27,652 bases of DNA from a virus, in IMG/VR virus record IMGVR_UViG_3300050821_012728. The stretch is one strand, 5' to 3'. The notes below the pieces were generated by a model, which was given only the letters and a program-made list of their open reading frames with translations, did no database searches and was not told the origin of the DNA. Positions 8,581 through 21,026 of the stretch are shown here, one piece after another. A program made the position numbers and the translations under genes. Numbering within the stretch: the stretch's first letter is position 1; every line of letters begins with the position of its first letter.

Positions 8581-9582
8581 ATGACTAGGACAAATGCTGT
8601 GCTTGTCGGATGTGGAGTTGGGGACGCACTCGGGATGCCCTTCGAAACTCTTGGTGAGAAAGTGCATGAAGGGTTGCAAGACTGGGATGGCTCATACCGG
8701 GCTGGTACATGGCATAAGCTACCTCCGGGCCACTATACCGACGACACGGAGATGTCTATTTGTCTAGCGCAATCGCTGATTGCTAACCGAAATGGTTACA
8801 GTCTTAACGACGCCGCCTGGAGATATTTGGCTTGGTCCCAGTTAACTCCACACGGCATGGGTGACACTACCCGGAACGCTATGGTGAAGCTAAAACAAGG
8901 TTGCTCACCAGAGTCTAGCGGTATCTGGTTTGAGGACCCGAATGCTGTTGGCAGCGGCCCTCCTATGCGAGCATCGCCCCTAGGTGTTTTCTATCATGGC
9001 CGGTATGAGATGACTCGTGCTTGCTATAGGGATGCTTACATAACGCATCATAGTCCCGAGGCTATAGTTGCAAGCCTAGCAGTAGCTACTGCGGTTAGAA
9101 ATGGGCTCTATGGACATGAGTCAAGGACAATTCTTAAAATAGTGGTATCTGCTGTAGAGGCTGCAGAACGAATCCACGGGCAAACGCGTGTCGGAGACGA
9201 TCTTCGAAAATTCTGCACTTATTTGCCATTGTCCGAGTTCTCGCGGCGGGGAAACGCACGGTCAATTACAGTAACAGCGCTGCATTTTGCTCTTACAGCA
9301 ACTAATTTTCGTGATGGTGTAATTGCAGCTGTCAGATTTGGGGGTGACTGTGATACCCGTGGAGCTATTGCAGGGGCGATTCTTGGGGCTCGGTTCGGCC
9401 TAGAAGGTATTCCTGAAGAATACAAAATAGGACTACTTAATTTCGAACAGCTTCGTAAGCTCGACGAGGATCTACCCTGTAAGCATCCAGATAGCTACAT
9501 TGAACATGAAGGTATGACAGGAACGTTAGGACGGGTTATCTGTCCAACCTGTGGTCACGAACGAGAGTGGGACGCGTACTAA
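8581..9582 (+). CDS. ADP-ribosylglycohydrolase (ARH/DraG family) with C-terminal CxxC zinc ribbon
   Basis: N-terminal GCGVGDALGMPFE and HYTDDTEM motifs are typical of the ARH fold. C-terminus reads ICPTCGHEREW. Confidence 0.8.
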   Translation: MTRTNAVLVGCGVGDALGMPFETLGEKVHEGLQDWDGSYRAGTWHKLPPGHYTDDTEMSICLAQSLIANRNGYSLNDAAWRYLAWSQLTPHGMGDTTRNAMVKLKQGCSPESSGIWFEDPNAVGSGPPMRASPLGVFYHGRYEMTRACYRDAYITHHSPEAIVASLAVATAVRNGLYGHESRTILKIVVSAVEAAERIHGQTRVGDDLRKFCTYLPLSEFSRRGNARSITVTALHFALTATNFRDGVIAAVRFGGDCDTRGAIAGAILGARFGLEGIPEEYKIGLLNFEQLRKLDEDLPCKHPDSYIEHEGMTGTLGRVICPTCGHEREWDAY

Positions 9583-9585
9583 TTT

Positions 9586-10029
9586 ATGTCGGATCTCTAC
9601 TACCGTTTCCCGTATGGATCGTCTGATGTTCAAGACAAGGTCAAACATCTGAAAGACCGCGCGGATGCCCTTAGCGCCGTAGCAACTAAGTTAGACGGTG
9701 TAAGTGAGCAGACCATGCTGACCGAGATGGCTAAGTTGTACGCCTCGTTCGCGGGTTGCATGACTTTACTCGCAAAGCAAATACCATATAAAGTGGGTGA
9801 TAGGGTGTTCTTGGTCAAGGCACCTAAATGCGAAGGCGGTTGGGCATCTTCAAAGCATTTTCTGGTAGTCGGAGCGCCAGGTGATAACGAGTCGTGGATT
9901 GCATCGACGGATTTTGGTAAGTATGGTGACGAGCCTCCCCGAAAAGCCGGTGACGTTATTCCAGTCAAGCCTGAAGACAGACACGTATTTGGATTCTCGC
10001 GCGACTATATAGCTAAGTTTCCTATATAA
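9586..10029 (+). CDS. Hypothetical protein
   Basis: ORF tightly spaced after the ARH gene. Confidence 0.5.
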   Translation: MSDLYYRFPYGSSDVQDKVKHLKDRADALSAVATKLDGVSEQTMLTEMAKLYASFAGCMTLLAKQIPYKVGDRVFLVKAPKCEGGWASSKHFLVVGAPGDNESWIASTDFGKYGDEPPRKAGDVIPVKPEDRHVFGFSRDYIAKFPI

Positions 10030-10168
10030 AATGCCCAGAATACTGACTCTTAAAATCCAGTGCGACTACTGCAGTAACAGTGCAGATCACCAAGTTACAG
10101 TAATCAATACTGAAGGTGAGCTTAACGGGGCTACGATATTCACGATAAAGGAAGACCGGTGAAGATGA

Positions 10169-10441
10169 ATGGTAACAATGACGACTAACGACGACGAAAC
10201 GATCGATCGATCGAGCTGGACTCCTGAAGAAATAGAAGAAGAGCGGTTAGAGACGTTGATTTCGCCGTTGTTCGACATGTTCCTGAAGTTTCAGGACGAC
10301 TTTGCAGCAAAAGCCCTCGATGAGATCGGCCTCTCTGATGCGGACGCTGAAACCAAAGCACAGATTATGGAGAAATCCGATCTGAAGAATTCTAGATTTC
10401 GGATGGGATCAGCTTTTCGCTTATCTTCTTCGTCATGTTAA
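10169..10441 (+). CDS. Highly acidic small protein
   Basis: Asp/Glu-rich sequence. AAGGAAGA ribosome-binding site 13 nt upstream. Confidence 0.4.
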   Translation: MVTMTTNDDETIDRSSWTPEEIEEERLETLISPLFDMFLKFQDDFAAKALDEIGLSDADAETKAQIMEKSDLKNSRFRMGSAFRLSSSSC

Positions 10442-10454
10442 GACTGAACGAATT

Positions 10455-10571
10455 ATGCGCGAATGGCATGCTAAAATCAATGCGTGCTGGCCAAACGGAC
10501 TTCCGCACGCTGTATCGTTTGAACAGATACAGGAGGCGTATGAGAAACTACCGCCTAAGGGCGAAACCTAA
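10455..10571 (+). CDS. 38-aa ORF, translationally coupled to the next gene
   Basis: ATG…TAA with the TAATG overlap onto ATG 10571. Below the ORF-track size cutoff. Confidence 0.2.
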   Translation: MREWHAKINACWPNGLPHAVSFEQIQEAYEKLPPKGET

Positions 10572-10804
10572 TGGACGATCTGCCTGAAAATCTGCCTGAA
10601 GTAGACCTCACTGCTGAAGACGTTATCACTACGACCTGTGAGTACTGCGGTCGTAAATACTGGATTCTACCTTCTCACGACGAAGGCGCAATTGCTCACG
10701 AAACTCCTAGTTGCCCAGATTTCTTAGCCTTGGATGCGGTCGAATTTATTAGTCGTAACAATAAGATCAAGCTAGGAAAGCTTGATAAGGCGCCAAAAGC
10801 TTGA
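10571..10804 (+). CDS. Small Cys/His zinc-ribbon-like protein
   Basis: CEYCG…H…SCPDF pattern. AAGGG ribosome-binding site. Confidence 0.5.
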   Translation: MDDLPENLPEVDLTAEDVITTTCEYCGRKYWILPSHDEGAIAHETPSCPDFLALDAVEFISRNNKIKLGKLDKAPKA

Positions 10805-11259
10805 AGCGGCCAACCGTAGTTTGGCCTGACGATCGACTACGTCAGCCGTCGGTAGCTATAAGCACGATCACGAACTCAGTTCGTGAGCTTTATCGTGATC
10901 TATGCGATAGCATGCGAGCTGAAGACGGCCTGGGTATGGCGGCTATTCAAATCGGTGATCCTCGGCGGATGTTCATCGTGAATCCTACGCTTGTAGGTAA
11001 AGCTCACGCTCCTCCGTTTGTATTTATCAATCCCGAGATCATATCTGTCTCTAAAGAAACAGAGGAGACCGAAGAGGGCTGTCTGTCATTCCCAGGTGTT
11101 GTCGTTAAGGTCGATCGGCCGGTGAGAGCCCGATTTCGTGCGTTGAATCTGTACCGTAAGCAATTCGAGCTGGAAGGTGAAGGCTTGCTAGCTCGGTGTA
11201 TGCTGCATGAATACGATCATTTGATCGGTCGGTTGATGACTGACTACGGCAATAAATAA
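10801..11259 (+). CDS. def: Peptide deformylase
   Basis: The three deformylase motifs are present: GMAAIQIG (motif I), EGCLSFPG (motif II) and HEYDHLIG (motif III). TTG start overlaps the upstream stop in a TTGA arrangement. Confidence 0.85.
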   Translation: MKRPTVVWPDDRLRQPSVAISTITNSVRELYRDLCDSMRAEDGLGMAAIQIGDPRRMFIVNPTLVGKAHAPPFVFINPEIISVSKETEETEEGCLSFPGVVVKVDRPVRARFRALNLYRKQFELEGEGLLARCMLHEYDHLIGRLMTDYGNK

Positions 11260-11261
11260 CT

Positions 11262-11720
11262 CTAAAGCTTTTTCTTTAGTTCTGTAATTTCTTTGAGTTT
11301 CTGATCCGCTTCAGCCTGTAGCTGGGCTATACGTTTCTTGTTCGATTCATGGTCGACACGTTCAACCAGATCGCTCCACGTTGACTCGCCATCGAGTAAG
11401 CCATGTACATCATCGAATGGTTTACCTTCTCTGTGCCCGTGCCAGTGGTAGTGTGAATATCTATATGGCCGTTTATCTATCCAGTTAAGGTGGCCTACTG
11501 CGATTACCTTTCCAGTAACACCGTCCACAACTTCTACACATTCAGTCTCCACAACCTCTATACATTCAGCCGCAAATATTTGATCGTCGTGGACATACTT
11601 ACGTGGTACCGCAGCTAAGGCTTCAACGCGGTCGTCTACTTGTGTAAGTTTTGTCCAACTCTTGTGACAACAGCTGCAACGGTATCCGTTGTTGGTCGTT
11701 AATTTAACGAAATACGTCAT
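11262..11720 (-). CDS. Hypothetical protein with N-terminal RCxxCxKS zinc-ribbon-like motif and C-terminal coiled coil
   Basis: Contains a 24-bp in-frame tandem repeat (ECIEVVET/ECVEVVDG). Its N-terminus is paralogous to the upstream gene. Confidence 0.5.
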   Translation of the reverse strand: MTYFVKLTTNNGYRCSCCHKSWTKLTQVDDRVEALAAVPRKYVHDDQIFAAECIEVVETECVEVVDGVTGKVIAVGHLNWIDKRPYRYSHYHWHGHREGKPFDDVHGLLDGESTWSDLVERVDHESNKKRIAQLQAEADQKLKEITELKKKL

Positions 11721-11725
11721 TCTCT

Positions 11726-12043
11726 TTAGTACTTGTAGTCGTACTCAGCAGTCTCGTCTTCATCTTCGAAGTCGTCCTGACGCACCGTGTGAACAATAGG
11801 CGGCAATGGAGTGACCGCCACTAATGGCTCACAAGCCTTGTGGACGAGAACCTCACGGACGATTTCATGGCCGTCACCGCCATAATCAAACGTACCGTCT
11901 AGGCGCTCATATCGCATGTAAGACCGGTGGCGGAACTCAACTGGAACACGAACCGGCTGCTCATGTAGCTGAGATGACTTATCGCAAAATTGACAGCGAA
12001 ACATCGTGAAAGCGACTAAACCACGTTGGTACCCGCCTGTCAA
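11726..12043 (-). CDS. Hypothetical protein, N-terminus paralogous to 11262..11720, acidic C-terminus
   Basis: FRCQFCDKSSQL…RV in this protein matches YRCSCCHKSWTKL…RV in the neighbour. TTG start. Confidence 0.45.
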   Translation of the reverse strand: MTGGYQRGLVAFTMFRCQFCDKSSQLHEQPVRVPVEFRHRSYMRYERLDGTFDYGGDGHEIVREVLVHKACEPLVAVTPLPPIVHTVRQDDFEDEDETAEYDYKY

Positions 12044-13496: not shown

Positions 13497-13859
13497 CTAT
13501 GAACATGATTTTTGTGCGCGTTTAGCCCGTTTAGCCATCTTAGTCAACTCGTTTCGCCATTTCCTCGCGTTGATCATTTCACCGCTATCAATGTCGGCCT
13601 CGATGCACTCCTGCAGCATAGCCGGCATACTTCCAGGGGAGCCGTATTGCCCATGGACCTTAGCAAACTCCTCGACCATCTCGTTGCAGCGCATGCATTT
13701 TTTCTCTGTTGTTATTTCTCCGTCGAACCGAGAAAAGTGCTTCATGTAACGTTTGCCAGGCAAGATCACCCCATGGCAGCAGTCACATATGTGCCTCTTG
13801 TTAGCCTTGACAGCTGTTTCCGTGAATACTTCACAGGGTTCTAGATCAATTCGACACAT
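13497..13859 (-). CDS. Cys-rich (multi-CxxC) zinc-binding protein
   Basis: CDCCHG and CMRCNE motifs. Confidence 0.5.
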   Translation of the reverse strand: MCRIDLEPCEVFTETAVKANKRHICDCCHGVILPGKRYMKHFSRFDGEITTEKKCMRCNEMVEEFAKVHGQYGSPGSMPAMLQECIEADIDSGEMINARKWRNELTKMAKRAKRAQKSCS

Positions 13860-15752: not shown

Positions 15753-16703
15753 ATGACCCATCTCAAGATCGTTAAGCCGACTTCTTCGGCGCAGAAGAAT
15801 ACAGAGACAACGCTCAACACAGTTGAGGTCACGCCAACTGAAGTTCAGTCTTGGCAGATTCCTGAATTTCAGCGTGAGCTTAAGATCACTGCAAAGGTCT
15901 TGCAGATCAGTGAAGAGATGCGAGAGAATGGTGTGATTCCTGGTGTGATTACACTCGGGTATCTTGGGAATGACATTTTCCTTGTCGATGGCCAGCATCG
16001 TTGTGCTGCCTTCCTTCACACGGAGCTGCCAAAGGGCTATTGTGATCTTCGTATCCTGCATTTCCAGGATATGGCAGAGATGGCCGAGGAATTCGTCGAT
16101 CTAAATAGCCGTCTAGTGCCGATCAAGCCGGATGACATTTTACGCGGAATCGAGAGTTCATACGGACCGCTAGCTAAGGTTCGTGCAGCTTGCCCGTTTG
16201 TGGGTTACTCGCAGATTCGTCGTGGCCCCGCCAATCCTATTATGTCAATGTCTGTAGCGCTGCGATGCTGGTATGGGTCTATGACGCCTGTGCCCAAGCA
16301 AGGCAGCGGAAGTGCACCTCAGCTAGGCAAGCAGTTGACCGTAGAGGAGTCCGATAACTTGATCAAGTTTTTGGAGTGTGCTCATACAGCGTGGGGACGA
16401 GACGCTGCCTACACTGGACTCTGGCACGCTTTGAACATGACCTTGTGTATGTGGGTGTTCAGGAATCTGGTTCTTAGCGTTTATTCTCCCAAGTCGCCCC
16501 GATTGACTTCGGCACAGTTTACTCGATGTCTTATGAGTCTATCGGCCGATGACCACTACATCGAGTGGCTGCATAGCAGGAAAGTCACCAAACGCGATAT
16601 TGCGCCGGCATACAGTCGAATCAAGACGATTTTTGCACGCCGTTTGGGTGAAGAGTTGAAGAAGAAAGTGCTACTACCCGCACCGGGTTGGGCGACGTCG
16701 TAA
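15753..16703 (+). CDS. DGQHR-domain protein (ParB/Srx-fold, DndB/DpdB-like)
   Basis: Literal FLVDGQHRCAAF motif inside an N-terminal ParB-like segment. Confidence 0.75.
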   Translation: MTHLKIVKPTSSAQKNTETTLNTVEVTPTEVQSWQIPEFQRELKITAKVLQISEEMRENGVIPGVITLGYLGNDIFLVDGQHRCAAFLHTELPKGYCDLRILHFQDMAEMAEEFVDLNSRLVPIKPDDILRGIESSYGPLAKVRAACPFVGYSQIRRGPANPIMSMSVALRCWYGSMTPVPKQGSGSAPQLGKQLTVEESDNLIKFLECAHTAWGRDAAYTGLWHALNMTLCMWVFRNLVLSVYSPKSPRLTSAQFTRCLMSLSADDHYIEWLHSRKVTKRDIAPAYSRIKTIFARRLGEELKKKVLLPAPGWATS

Positions 16704-18250: not shown

Positions 18251-18514
18251 CTACTTGTTCTTGTTCAAGCATACCGCTACTCGCCTGTCCCATTCCTGTA
18301 GCTGGTTAAGATACCAACGGACAGTGAACTCGTTGGCAGCAGCCATCTCGGCAAGATGCGGTGGTGGCGGAATGTCGCATCTAGGATACGCCTGAATTAT
18401 ACTCACGTTACTCGGCGTTTCTACTCGGTGCATGTTACTACAGGCGATACCGATAAACGCCAACGTCCAAACCAGGAATGCAAGTAGGACTGCAGGGATT
18501 ATGATTGTCTTCAC
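18251..18514 (-). CDS. N-terminally membrane-anchored lysis accessory protein (spanin-like)
   Basis: N-terminal TM or lipoprotein-like signal (…IGIAC). Pro-rich periplasmic part. Start overlaps the endolysin stop in an ATGA arrangement. Confidence 0.4.
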   Translation of the reverse strand: MKTIIIPAVLLAFLVWTLAFIGIACSNMHRVETPSNVSIIQAYPRCDIPPPPHLAEMAAANEFTVRWYLNQLQEWDRRVAVCLNKNK

Positions 18515-19389
18515 GGCGTCTGGAGTTTAACCCAACTAAGGGGCGTATAAGTATCTAAACCGACAATTCCGTCTGCTGTAAGTCCGTTTTTCGTCTGAAA
18601 GTCTTTGACGGCTGCTTCTGTCATTGGACCGAAATTACCGTCTGCTGTTACACCAATGCGCTTTTGGATCCACGCAACGGTGCCATTTGAATCGTTGAGC
18701 CTAATCACGTTAGGAACGCTCACATCGACAGTGCTATTGAATCCTGGACAGCCTAATGCATCCCCTTGGCGCTGGTAGAGGACATAAGCAGCGAACGCAG
18801 GAATTACCAATGCAGTATCCGGTGATGCAGCCAAGTTGATTGGCTGACGCGGTGCCTGGTACCACGGCTTAGCAGTCCACTGTGGGGTATCGATCAGCAC
18901 GCCTGCAGCATGACTTCCCATGTTATCCGACCAGACTTGGTTAGAACTGTACTGCCCTGGCCAGACCTTGTAGAAATTATAGAGTGCCTGAGCACATCGA
19001 ACAGTCCAGTCGTACATCTCTTGTTCGTTTAGCATGTTCGAGGTCTCTTCGACGTCATAGAACGGCACGAAATCAGTTAGTGGGTTACTGCCGAGTTCAT
19101 TACCTACGTAATCGATGAGCGCCTGAGCCTGTACTTCTGGCTCTGGGGTCACCATTCCTTTATTGGGGTAACAAAGGAATAGGTAAGTTGAGCGCTTCAT
19201 TTTGGCGGCTATGACTGCATCTTTGTAGTCCGCCCATGTCTTGTCTATGTAGCACCCTGTGCTGCCACCGTACGGACGTCCATAGATAGACCGGAGAATA
19301 CACATACGAACGCCGGCTTGATAAGCAGCATCAAGATTTATCCCGGTGTTATTATCTTCATCAGCCCAATCGAGAATTAGAGTTGCCAT
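18511..19389 (-). CDS. Endolysin: GH25-like glycoside hydrolase with C-terminal PG_binding_1 domain
   Basis: N-terminal DWAD…YQAGVRMCILRS pattern resembling GH25 muramidases. C-terminal GVTADGNFGPMTEAAVKDFQTKNGLTADGIVG peptidoglycan-binding repeat. Confidence 0.75.
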   Translation of the reverse strand: MATLILDWADEDNNTGINLDAAYQAGVRMCILRSIYGRPYGGSTGCYIDKTWADYKDAVIAAKMKRSTYLFLCYPNKGMVTPEPEVQAQALIDYVGNELGSNPLTDFVPFYDVEETSNMLNEQEMYDWTVRCAQALYNFYKVWPGQYSSNQVWSDNMGSHAAGVLIDTPQWTAKPWYQAPRQPINLAASPDTALVIPAFAAYVLYQRQGDALGCPGFNSTVDVSVPNVIRLNDSNGTVAWIQKRIGVTADGNFGPMTEAAVKDFQTKNGLTADGIVGLDTYTPLSWVKLQTP

Positions 19390-19394
19390 AAACG

Positions 19395-19697
19395 TTATTC
19401 TCCTCTGTTCTTAGTTGTGAATCTACGTGCCTCTTCGATCAGACGGTTTTTCTCTATCAATGGTGCCAAACAGTCATCGCAAACATCAAGCGCCTTCATT
19501 GCCGGCAACGAGTCCGTTTTGAGTAGCGTTCCTATTAGACTAGGAAACTCACCCCCGGGTGGGCTCAAGTCCAGACTACTGCGTATTTGGCTGTAATCCG
19601 CTGTAGTCTGCAAGTTTTTAAGATTGACGAATACTTGATGTCCGATGTCACTCGGAATCTCAGCATCACAGCAATCACATCTGCTGATCCGTGCCAT
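19395..19697 (-). CDS. CxxC…CxxC zinc-ribbon protein
   Basis: Start moved to MARISRCDCCD. That ATG follows an AAGGAAAG ribosome-binding site and sits 1 nt after the upstream stop. Confidence 0.5.
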   Translation of the reverse strand: MARISRCDCCDAEIPSDIGHQVFVNLKNLQTTADYSQIRSSLDLSPPGGEFPSLIGTLLKTDSLPAMKALDVCDDCLAPLIEKNRLIEEARRFTTKNRGE

Positions 19698-19698
19698 T

Positions 19699-20100
19699 TT
19701 ATTTCTTTCCTTGAAGTCTAGCTGATCCACGACCAAATAGCCGTTTGACTTGGTCGACTACCCCGCCGTCCTTGCCCAATGCATGGCCCAAGTCCAATAC
19801 AATCTTTCCCCAAGGCAACGCCATTGCATTCGCTATGATACCAGGGGCAATTACCAATGCGAACCCTACAATTCGACGGTTATTCAAATTCTCTATTCTT
19901 ACTGCAGAAGGCTCAATATTAGACATCACCAAATCACTTGAATCTGGCGTGAATAGCACCGGACGTTCATTAGACTTCATTGGTGGGTCTACGGTGACCA
20001 CCGTAAATTCACCAGGTGACACTACGCCAATCATCGGCTTACGAGGATACTTGCGACGTGCATGACGATGCGCTTTAGTCGACTTTAGAGGAGGTTTCAT
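19699..20100 (-). CDS. Hypothetical protein with basic N-terminus
   Basis: Start moved to MKPPLK because that ATG has a GGTGA ribosome-binding site. The long ORF from 20133 would overlap the upstream gene by about 60 nt. Confidence 0.4.
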   Translation of the reverse strand: MKPPLKSTKAHRHARRKYPRKPMIGVVSPGEFTVVTVDPPMKSNERPVLFTPDSSDLVMSNIEPSAVRIENLNNRRIVGFALVIAPGIIANAMALPWGKIVLDLGHALGKDGGVVDQVKRLFGRGSARLQGKK

Positions 20101-20578
20101 CGTTTTCACCGTCGTCTTCCTCAGTATCGCCATTTACCTCGTCATCAGGCTCGTCGTCATCGTCGTCGTCACCTTCGTCATCGTCATCGTCATCGCTAGC
20201 ATCATCATCATCGTCGTCGTCATCATCATCGTCTTCGAATGCGCCGTCGTCTTCTAGTTCATCTTCGTCCATGATCTCTTCAACCGTGGATATAGGAGTC
20301 TTGGGTGTTGGAGTAACTATTGCCTTGGTAGCCTCTTTCGACGCTTTCTTGTCAGCCTTTTCTTTTCTTCGTTCTAGCGCAATTGAATTGGACCTTGATG
20401 TTGGTGCAATAATGCCTAACTTGTTGATACGATCGCTCAAGAAATTTGGGCTGACCCCTAATATGCTTGATGCTCTCAATATGGTTTGACATTGCTCAAG
20501 TGCAAAGGTGATTATGTGTCGTTCTGCTTCATGAATTTGAAGCCAAAACGGGGCGTTTTCATTTCTTTTTTTTGGCAT
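20075..20578 (-). CDS. Fis-type HTH DNA-binding protein with ~65-aa poly-Asp/Glu tail
   Basis: IITFALEQCQTILRASSILGVSPNFLSDRINKLGI matches the Fis/NtrC HTH_8 pattern. The C-terminus is almost pure Asp/Glu. AAGGA ribosome-binding site. Confidence 0.65.
   Translation of the reverse strand: MPKKRNENAPFWLQIHEAERHIITFALEQCQTILRASSILGVSPNFLSDRINKLGIIAPTSRSNSIALERRKEKADKKASKEATKAIVTPTPKTPISTVEEIMDEDELEDDGAFEDDDDDDDDDDDASDDDDDDEGDDDDDDEPDDEVNGDTEEDDGENDETSSKVD
20140..20245. repeat. GTC/ATC trinucleotide microsatellite encoding the poly-Asp tail
   Basis: Runs of (GTC)n and (ATC)n visible directly in the sequence. Confidence 0.6.
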
Positions 20579-21026
20579 TTCTCGTCATCCTTGCATCGAA
20601 TCGCATCAATATTGATTCGATACTGTGCCCTTTATCAAGCCGCCGTCTAATTGTGCTATAGGCAACATTTAATAGTTTTGCCCATTCGCAGATAGTATGT
20701 GTCTGACCATTAAACGTAATCCAATGTGTGTTTCTTCTATTGACTGCTTGTTCTTGTTTGGTCGCCCAACGAGCGTTGCCAGGTTTATATTTTCCGTTTT
20801 TGTCTGGATAACGATCAATAGTGTACAGCTTGGAAGGGCGTTCACCCATATCGGCTAGAAAATTTCTAAAATCCTGCCAACGTTTACATACTGTAATCCC
20901 TCTATAATAAGGATATCGCGGATCTTCTGGAGGTAACTGACAACGTTGGATCATTCTTCGCCAGCTTATATAGGTCGGGGACAAATTTGTTTTGCCGTTT
21001 GCGGATGTATGCCCATGGCGCCACAT
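20559..21026 (-). CDS. Conserved phage DNA-binding protein family (often annotated AP2/HNH-like)
   Basis: SWRRMIQRC…YRGITVCKRW…DMGERP…NARWATKQEQAVNRR…EWAKLL…TIRRRL pattern, recalled from many phage genomes. The family assignment is from memory only. Confidence 0.55.
   Translation of the reverse strand: MWRHGHTSANGKTNLSPTYISWRRMIQRCQLPPEDPRYPYYRGITVCKRWQDFRNFLADMGERPSKLYTIDRYPDKNGKYKPGNARWATKQEQAVNRRNTHWITFNGQTHTICEWAKLLNVAYSTIRRRLDKGHSIESILMRFDARMTRNAKKKK

Follow-up and report, generated by a model that had tools for sequence, protein, structure and literature searches.

A candidate orphan ADP-ribose eraser encoded by a phage-like replicon

Why would a phage-like replicon encode an enzyme that removes ADP-ribose? 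The question is raised by a 27,652-nucleotide stretch of viral DNA (IMG/VR record IMGVR_UViG_3300050821_012728; from here on, the window), in which one open reading frame (ORF) had been predicted to encode an ADP-ribosylglycohydrolase (ARH) with a fused zinc ribbon and had been proposed to counteract immune systems that act by ADP-ribosylation. The ORF and the three motifs quoted in this original prediction, GDALGMPFE, YTDDTEM and CPTCGHE, are all present in the sequence (Table 1). Here, we argue that the gene is best explained as a phage 'orphan eraser', i.e., an ARH that would act in counter-defence by removing marks written by an ADP-ribosyltransferase (ART) encoded elsewhere, and we assign a probability of roughly 45% to this explanation as a whole.

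Using profile searches, we found that the protein matches the Pfam family PF03747 (ADP_ribosyl_GH) over profile positions 2-287 of 287 (E=1.9e-60, 205.4 bits against a cut-off of 26.2) as well as PHROG 6572, annotated as 'ADP-ribosylglycohydrolase' (E=1.4e-37). An AlphaFold2 (AF2) model built on 86 homologues had a mean predicted local distance difference test score (pLDDT) of 92.7 and a predicted template modeling score (pTM) of 0.90. Residues 1-300 were modeled as all helical with a pLDDT of ~97, and the 10-residue blocks in the ARH domain had values of 89-99. In Foldseek searches, this model aligned to MJ1187 (1t5j) with template modeling (TM) scores of 0.78/0.86, and 1t5j, 2cwc, DraG, Tri1 and ARH3 were each recovered with a probability of 1.00. 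The top matches were 1t5j, the Thermus ARH 2cwc, the Listeria ART-ARH immunity protein 8za7, DraG and Tri1, with ARH3 further off, and a sequence search of the PDB ranked the ARH structures in the same order. Judged by profile and by model, the protein is a full-length member of the ARH/DraG-fold superfamily (PF03747), in line with the fold originally predicted, and this assignment is robust.

A superfamily member need not be an active enzyme, and the original prediction had singled out the catalytic Asp/Glu residues as decisive. We assessed residue conservation in an alignment of 86 homologues (A1 in Table 1), in which E22, D54, D55, D256 and D258 are present and invariant, as are T155 and H156, while T53 and T259 are conserved in at least 90% of the sequences. 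Counted along a HMMER alignment, the ARH ligands pair with E28, T59-D60-D61 and D243-x-D245-T246 of DraG from Azospirillum (3g9d), which we take to be the ligands of its binuclear Mn site. A binuclear metal site and a catalytic 'TH motif' have been described for the family (PMC9503650, section 3.4.2). With every di-metal ligand and T155-H156 in place, the active site looks intact by alignment, and the original prediction withstands the check that it had set for itself; sequence and model together make it very probable that the protein is an active ARH-type hydrolase.

With regard to the gene itself, the ATG at 8581 is likely the start codon rather than the GTG at codon 7, which is used in some public gene calls and yields a protein of 327 amino acids (aa) (P0001/P0260). 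In a 99.2%-identical variant strain (L012/P0262), codon 7 has changed to GCG (V7A), and the ATG still opens an ORF of 333 aa; therefore, the ATG is the better start. Between the two strains, the ARH gene has 10 synonymous and 4 non-synonymous codon differences, which fits purifying selection. The gene is part of a co-directional run, from ~6957 to 11259, in which neighbouring genes overlap or lie apart by only a few bases, and it is probably co-transcribed with this tightly packed run of small accessory genes. Promoter and terminator scans of the window gave counts at or below the shuffled expectation and were uninformative.

Both the gene content and the relatives of the ARH agree with the phage origin assumed in the original prediction. 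The replicon looks like that of a large uncultured phage because it encodes an endolysin, an HNH endonuclease and RtcB among dense ORFans (Table 1). The window also encodes a DXD glycosyltransferase, a DUF1643 protein and dozens of small family-less ORFs, and a comparison with 50,697 deposited phage genomes gave no match to it at the nucleotide level. The DNA of the locus is identical in three other samples, one of which is represented by the 81.8-kb contig SRR34148718_86371, and the 99.2% variant was recovered from a further sample. All relatives with 50-61% identity to the ARH are metagenomic, and the long contigs among them (502, 264 and 184 kb), which consist of runs of small unannotated ORFs, resemble huge phages in their gene layout. 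More widely, relatives occur on at least 480 IMG/VR viral contigs, which in many cases span 200-600 kb, and 32 deposited phages, including giant phages of Xanthomonas (XbC2), Erwinia, Salmonella and Serratia, Bacillus phage G and Streptomyces phages, encode ARH relatives at 25-38% identity. The best cellular match, searched in one genome per species across 185,579 species, was at most 35% identical. Because the relatives lie on phage-like contigs and the best cellular match reaches only 35%, the ARH appears to belong to a subclade known so far only from phage-like metagenomic contigs. These findings are in keeping with a published survey in which ARG/ARH domains were reported from ~5% of jumbo phages and some actinophages (PMC9503650). 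Compared with these deposited phage proteins, which carry the same domain on the same kind of replicon, only the ARH studied here has a Cys/His-containing tail, and its subclade is exclusively metagenomic.

A separate observation on these phages is that four large IMG/VR contigs each carry two ARH paralogues, one per synteny group (3300010938_000951, L019 and L024; 3300049215_000529, L021 and L036; 3300034091_000148, L018 and L038; 3300015360_001243, L032 and L041). This arrangement suggests two distinct ARH functions inside one phage.

Among proteins of known structure, the best sequence matches are MJ1187 (1t5j) and the Thermus thermophilus ARH (2cwc) (E=4e-26 and 7e-24, respectively; 27-29% identity). 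Both are single-domain prokaryotic ARHs of ~300 aa and presumably structural-genomics proteins without an established substrate, so that these matches are uninformative on function. DraG (3g9d, 2woc) is also among the best matches (E=3e-21 by sequence, ~1e-14 to 1e-15 in Foldseek, ~25-27% identity) and shares with the ARH the fold and the di-metal ligand set (E, T-D-D, D-x-D-T). By this analogy, the ARH probably shares DraG chemistry, i.e., hydrolysis of an N-glycosidic ADP-ribosyl linkage. However, it is not DraG proper, as it scores 112.5 bits against the DraG equivalog profile TIGR02662 with a cut-off of 337.05, and it lies on a phage-like replicon without the DraT, nitrogenase or PII context of DraG; no DraT or nif genes were found among the window ORFs scanned. 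Immunity proteins of the Tri1/Lmo0067 type (6dre, 8za7), which undo the mark of an ART toxin, use the ARH fold in a conflict setting and are clearly similar to the ARH in sequence and structure. Yet the ARH is not Tri1 (79.7 bits against a cut-off of 490 for NF041672), matches positions 69-355 of that profile without the N-terminal toxin-binding extension of Tri1 and, unlike these immunity proteins, has no detected adjacent ART or toxin gene. Human ARH3 and ARH1 belong to the same superfamily and have the same metal motifs but are more distant (E ~1e-11 and ~1e-4, respectively), and the specificity of ARH3 for Ser-ADP-ribose, poly-ADP-ribose and O-acetyl-ADP-ribose is not transferable to the ARH.

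From these comparisons, we propose that the protein would be a divalent-metal-dependent (Mg2+/Mn2+) ADP-ribosylhydrolase made by a large phage that would cleave the ribose-1'' linkage of mono-ADP-ribose on a macromolecule. We lean toward a macromolecular target rather than small-molecule ADP-ribose. DraG, Tri1 and Lmo0067 are the nearest characterised relatives, and we take them to be arginine-ADP-ribosyl-protein hydrolases or immunity proteins against ART toxins, with an arginine specificity that we assume. Because of these relatives, and because viral ARG domains have been argued from phyletic patterns to prefer macromolecular ADP-ribose conjugates (PMC9503650), the substrate would most probably be an arginine-ADP-ribosylated protein. 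Since no transferase gene is detectable beside the ARH, the mark would be written by an enzyme encoded elsewhere, i.e., a host defence or toxin ART or the ART of a competing element, and the ARH would be an 'orphan eraser' acting as counter-defence. Such a net role against an externally encoded ART is our leading, if tentative, candidate. The idea is plausible and generic, and it has been published for phage ARH domains, erasers without a coupled ART having been proposed to act on externally written marks (PMC9503650). A functional analogy is provided by AdfN (T4 gp30.3), a phage orphan eraser of DarT1 marks without a cognate transferase; AdfN has the NADAR fold and was shown experimentally to act on guanine-ADP-ribose on DNA (PMC11825919), whereas the ARH has an unrelated fold and is known from its sequence.

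The original prediction had named marks of the DarT and CmdT type as targets. These fit poorly: the nearest characterised relatives presumably act on arginine-ADP-ribosylated proteins, and it is macrodomain or NADAR enzymes, not those with the ARH fold, that remove DarT marks from DNA (PMC11825919). For CmdT marks, removal by a hydrolase has only been suggested in the paper concerned. If counter-defence is correct, the clade would comprise ARH-fold phage 'orphan erasers' alongside the examples with a NADAR fold (AdfN) or a macrodomain, and it would point to protein-ADP-ribosylating defences that phages must undo. The clade has many members on large contigs of uncultured phages, and because the literature searched contained no phage ARH with an experimentally defined substrate, it is a reasonable target for biochemistry. 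The gene itself adds little beyond one more family member with an unvalidated tail.

Table 1. Features of the ARH gene and of selected other genes in the window
Feature	Coordinates	Strand	Basis
ARH gene, 333 codons plus stop	8581..9582	+	ORF listing
ADP-ribosylglycohydrolase domain (aa 7-280)	8599..9420	+	PF03747 full-length profile match, AF2, Foldseek
Motif GDALGMPFE (aa 14-22); E22, predicted metal-site glutamate	8620..8646	+	Alignment A1, DraG correspondence
Motif YTDDTEM (aa 52-58); T53/D54/D55, predicted metal ligands	8734..8754	+	Alignment A1, DraG alignment
ITHH (aa 154-157); 'TH motif' T155-H156	9040..9051	+	T155 and H156 invariant in A1
Motif GGDCDTRG (aa 254-261); D256/D258/T259, predicted metal ligands	9340..9363	+	Alignment A1, DraG alignment
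Lineage-specific C-terminal tail (aa 299-333), PCKHPDSYIEHEGMTGTLGRVICPTCGHEREWDAY	9475..9579	+	Only in the query, identical copies and near-identical variants
CPTCGHE knuckle (aa 321-327)	9541..9561	+	Sequence; Zn_Ribbon_YjdM positions 21-28/30
RtcB, 398-aa ORF	751-1947	+	PHROG 1075, E=2e-111
Metallophosphoesterase, NinI/ApaH/PNKP-like	2593-3360	+	
Major vault protein (MVP)-like gene, 872 aa	3467-6085	+	MVP_shoulder E=3e-26, vault repeat (Vault_3) E=3e-11
Peptide deformylase	10801-11259		
GH25 and peptidoglycan-binding endolysin	18511-19389	-	
HNH endonuclease	20559-21026	-	PHROG 3377, E=1.8e-40
Dual-specificity phosphatase	26277-26702	-	

Several observations weigh against the counter-defence proposal. 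First, the literature searched yielded no experimental work, biochemical or genetic, on a phage ARH. Second, the protein scores far below the equivalog cut-offs of DraG and Tri1, so that arginine specificity is only an extrapolation. Third, the position of Asp97 in DraG is occupied by Gly92 in the ARH (clade consensus PHGMG), and mechanistic details may therefore differ. Fourth, the close homologue loci, including L005, L007, L008, L009 and L028, have no conserved ARH neighbour that would point to a target. Fifth, our inspection covered ~34 kb (up to contig position 33.5 kb) of a contig that is at least 82 kb long, and a phage ART elsewhere is possible. Finally, a NAMPT gene (NAPRTase E=3e-56, NAMPT_N E=3e-32), accompanied by a PTH2 peptidyl-tRNA hydrolase gene, lies within 6 kb of a distant ARH (~33-37% identity) in 13 viral loci (12 of which are L024, L025, L027, L030, L032, L034, L036-L039, L042 and L045), which hints that a distant subgroup of phage ARHs is tied to NAD+ salvage islands and that some phage ARHs serve NAD+/ADP-ribose metabolism.

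The fifth of these points bears on the possibility that the ARH is the partner of an ART of the phage itself, either reversing or time-limiting marks like those of T4 Alt/ModA/ModB or forming the antitoxin or immunity half of an ART-ARH pair. The closest characterised relatives are such partners (DraG-DraT, Tri1-Tre1 and the Listeria Lmo0067-ART pair), and the span that we inspected is a small part of the phage genome. However, no window ORF scanned matched an ART family in Pfam or PHROGs, a negative to be read with the caveat that ARTs are too divergent for a reliable call by hidden Markov models. The genes of toxin-antitoxin and immunity pairs usually lie side by side. Here, the genes abutting the ARH gene, 8209-8568 (119 aa) and 9586-10029 (147 aa), have no family match, and homologues of both are absent from 84 other ARH loci, while L005, L007, L008, L009 and L028 have no conserved adjacent partner. 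When we clustered the ORFs located up to 6 kb from the ARH in the 84 other loci, we likewise obtained only lineage-level synteny blocks. We consider a partnership with an ART of the phage itself unlikely.

Alternatively, the ARH might hydrolyse a small molecule (O-acetyl-ADP-ribose, the ADP-ribose-based immune signals gcADPR and His-ADPR, or alpha-NAD+) and thereby silence signals or feed ADP-ribose/NAD+ salvage. ARH3-type enzymes hydrolyse O-acetyl-ADP-ribose (cited in PMC9503650), and the 13 NAMPT loci lend weight to a metabolic function. Against this, the NAMPT link is confined to a different, distant subgroup, with no NAMPT gene in the window or in the loci of close homologues; the argument for a macromolecular preference of viral ARG domains (PMC9503650) runs counter to it; and the sequence matches DraG/Tri1 (E=1e-18 to 1e-21) better than it matches ARH3 (E ~1e-11). 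A small-molecule substrate thus seems distinctly improbable for this ARH. A 190-aa ARH neighbour among the 84 loci that looked by eye like a CYTH protein had no Pfam support, and this guess was dropped.

A third alternative involves the C terminus of the protein, which the original prediction had described as a fused zinc ribbon. A zinc ribbon domain is not established. The 35-residue tail begins after the last ARH helix (…LDEDL, aa 294-298) and contains Cys 300, 321 and 324 and His 302, 309 and 326, and it thus has one canonical CPxCG knuckle and C300-x-H302, whereas a zinc ribbon has two CxxC knuckles. Searched on its own, its best Pfam match was the second knuckle of Zn_Ribbon_YjdM over 8 residues (E=0.03, 14.8 bits against a cut-off of 30.8). 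In the AF2 model, residues 301-333 had a pLDDT of 38-59, and two-residue strands (319-320 and 327-328) flanked CPTC with low confidence. Among 120 C termini inspected, the tail was present in 0 of 119 non-identical homologues, most of which end 10-15 residues past the LDxxL helix; neither the homologue of LR745208, an uncultured phage of 485 kb, nor that of L028 has Cys at its end. Similarly, among the best 150 of 11,345 phmmer matches at E<=1e-3, no relative aligned beyond query residue 319, and a tblastn search with the tail as query, which covered 3.3 Mb of related loci, found nothing above chance. A conserved domain was rejected based on the homologue C termini, phmmer, Pfam and tblastn, and an origin by fusion with a downstream small ORF was rejected based on L005, L007, L008, L009 and L028, in which no comparable Cys-rich small ORF lies downstream of the ARH gene.

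Cys and His make up 6/35 residues of the tail but 16/298 of the rest of the protein, an enrichment (Fisher p=0.019) that leaves room for one small metal site of the Cys3His type. The tail may bind one metal ion via C300/H302 and C321/C324 and could have a role in stability or targeting. In the variant strain, the tail has one non-synonymous (M-to-I) and no synonymous change; the Cys/His residues are kept, with a divergence too low to be informative. Going by its distribution among sequenced relatives, the tail is a recent lineage-specific extension, and it is superfluous for explaining the enzyme. Separately, we observed short Cys-rich C-terminal tails of unrelated sequence on other ARH homologues (P0048/P0050, P0069 and P0106/P0110/P0112; examples are CPWAGCSTPLDCDGTRH, PCGSCQ and CKNKTCSCATSCG), and independent gain of such tails by ARHs may be a recurring theme.

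In the third alternative, the ARH would work with RtcB and the ApaH/PNKP-like phosphoesterase in RNA repair by stripping ADP-ribose caps from RNA phosphate ends, or ADP-ribose from RNA bases, to permit re-ligation of damaged tRNA or mRNA, with the tail aiding nucleic-acid binding. ARH3 is able to remove ADP-ribose from the phosphate ends of RNA, and the genes for RtcB and the metallophosphoesterase lie 5-8 kb upstream of the ARH gene on the same strand. In addition, L008, with an ARH of 57% identity, has RtcB 2 kb from the ARH, and a few more homologues end in short, Cys-rich stretches unrelated to this tail in sequence. On the other hand, L008 is the only one of the 84 other ARH loci with a nearby RtcB, and the conserved partner of RtcB is MVP; accordingly, an ARH-RtcB association was rejected. 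The tail is unconserved and unvalidated, and searches of the window found no structured RNA (Rfam at E<=0.1, including vault RNA and Y RNA) and no tRNA (ARAGORN). We regard a role in RNA repair as very unlikely. We give slightly less credence still to a variant in which the tail, as a metal-binding nucleic-acid knuckle, would retarget the ARH to ADP-ribosylated RNA or DNA and the ARH would form an RNA-damage-reversal module with RtcB, the phosphoesterase and the MVP-like protein against CmdT-like RNA-targeting ARTs; if true, this would be the first ARH-fold eraser of nucleic-acid ADP-ribose used by a phage.

The original prediction had also remarked on an ARH near an MVP gene as a curious coincidence, given that eukaryotic vaults carry a PARP (vPARP). 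The MVP-like gene is on the same strand as the ARH gene, 2.5 kb upstream of it. We examined 83 other MVP-like loci (41-71% identity), 42 of which have at least 4 kb of downstream flank, and found an ARH in 3 of the 83 (L028, L124 and L127). L028 and L124 share 92% DNA identity and are one lineage, in which the MVP is 53% and the ARH 48-49% identical to those in the window and the ARH lies ~3.05 kb downstream; none of the genes between or around the MVP and ARH genes in L028 is homologous to those in the window. In L127, a partial ARH (31% identity) lies 6.4 kb upstream of the MVP. Conversely, an MVP was present in only 1 of the 84 other ARH loci (L028), and the MVPs nearest to that in the window (61-71% identity) are without an ARH. 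The recurrence is mildly curious; the linkage is not conserved, and the echo of vPARP is essentially a coincidence. An MVP-ARH functional module was rejected on these co-occurrence counts. An ARH that serves as the eraser counterpart of a vPARP-like activity on or with the MVP-like protein would agree with the position of the gene and with the order kept in the L028/L124 lineage without a homologous intervening gene, but this is the least probable of the alternatives, being largely refuted by the counts (two lineages in all) and finding no detected PARP or ART to accompany it. We return to the orphan eraser in counter-defence as the best explanation of the ARH and describe below what else the neighbourhoods contain.

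The host ARG domains have been reported to be coupled to phosphatases of the rhodanese-phosphatase superfamily or to calcineurin-like phosphatases in >55% of neighbourhoods (PMC9503650). In 4 of the 84 other ARH loci (L026, L033, L035 and L060), homologues of the dual-specificity phosphatase in the window lie 3-6 kb from the ARH, and in L060, a metallophosphoesterase homologue lies beside it. By analogy, a phosphatase near the ARH might be a faint echo of the host coupling. SLOG domains bind ligands derived from ADP-ribose. A cpYpsA (SLOG-family) gene was identified by Pfam ~8 kb from the ARH in L008 (1040-1624), and a 172-aa ORF between the MVP and the ARH in L028 (8182-8700) has an N terminus (…VTGHRPQKLGGY…) that appears YpsA/SLOG-like by eye only.

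The pairing of RtcB with MVP is more regular than that of either gene with the ARH. RtcB is a recurring direct neighbour of the MVP in 11 of the 83 other MVP-like loci, and these are concentrated among the MVPs most like that in the window. In most of the 11 loci, RtcB is located 28-134 nucleotides (nt) upstream of the MVP on the same strand; altogether, it is upstream on the same strand at 28-426 nt in L096, L099-L105 and L110 and downstream in L111 and L144. In the window, a 96-aa ORF and the metallophosphoesterase separate the two genes. No prokaryotic or phage RtcB-MVP pair was described in the literature searched, and this pair is a more unusual feature of the locus than the ARH. RtcB is a single 708-aa gene in the 99.2% variant (L012, 1240-3366), while the window has a 161-aa ORF (226-711) followed by the 398-aa RtcB ORF, and both pieces match PHROG 32482 ('PhoH-like') at successive profile positions. 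This suggests that an N-terminally extended RtcB is split or frameshifted in the window or that the two sequences differ by a sequencing difference. The similarities of the metallophosphoesterase to ApaH (Ap4A hydrolase), to the phosphatase module of bacterial Pnkp and to NinI-like phosphatases stay below the equivalog cut-offs in every case; together with RtcB, the protein may form a set for RNA end healing and sealing.

Among the remaining genes in the window, many small ORFans contain CxxC pairs (6957-7592, 10571-10804 and, on the reverse strand, 11262-11720, 11726-12043, 13497-13859 and 19395-19736), and these CxxC-bearing ORFans had no significant Pfam match. An example is a 211-aa protein with CEACHDSG…PCHDCP at its C terminus. 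The 316-aa protein encoded at 15753-16703 has a weak, sub-threshold likeness to the DGQHR domain and to the N-terminal (ParB/DndB-like) domain of GmrSD and could have a role related to DNA modification or anti-restriction. Finally, a 67-aa ORF at 27352-27555 on the reverse strand carries an N-terminal motif of the pectate-lyase/tailspike type (…NVRNFGATGNGTTDDT…), and the same gene is annotated as PF12708 on L010/L011; this ORF is a short fragment that may be a remnant or the start of a tailspike gene.

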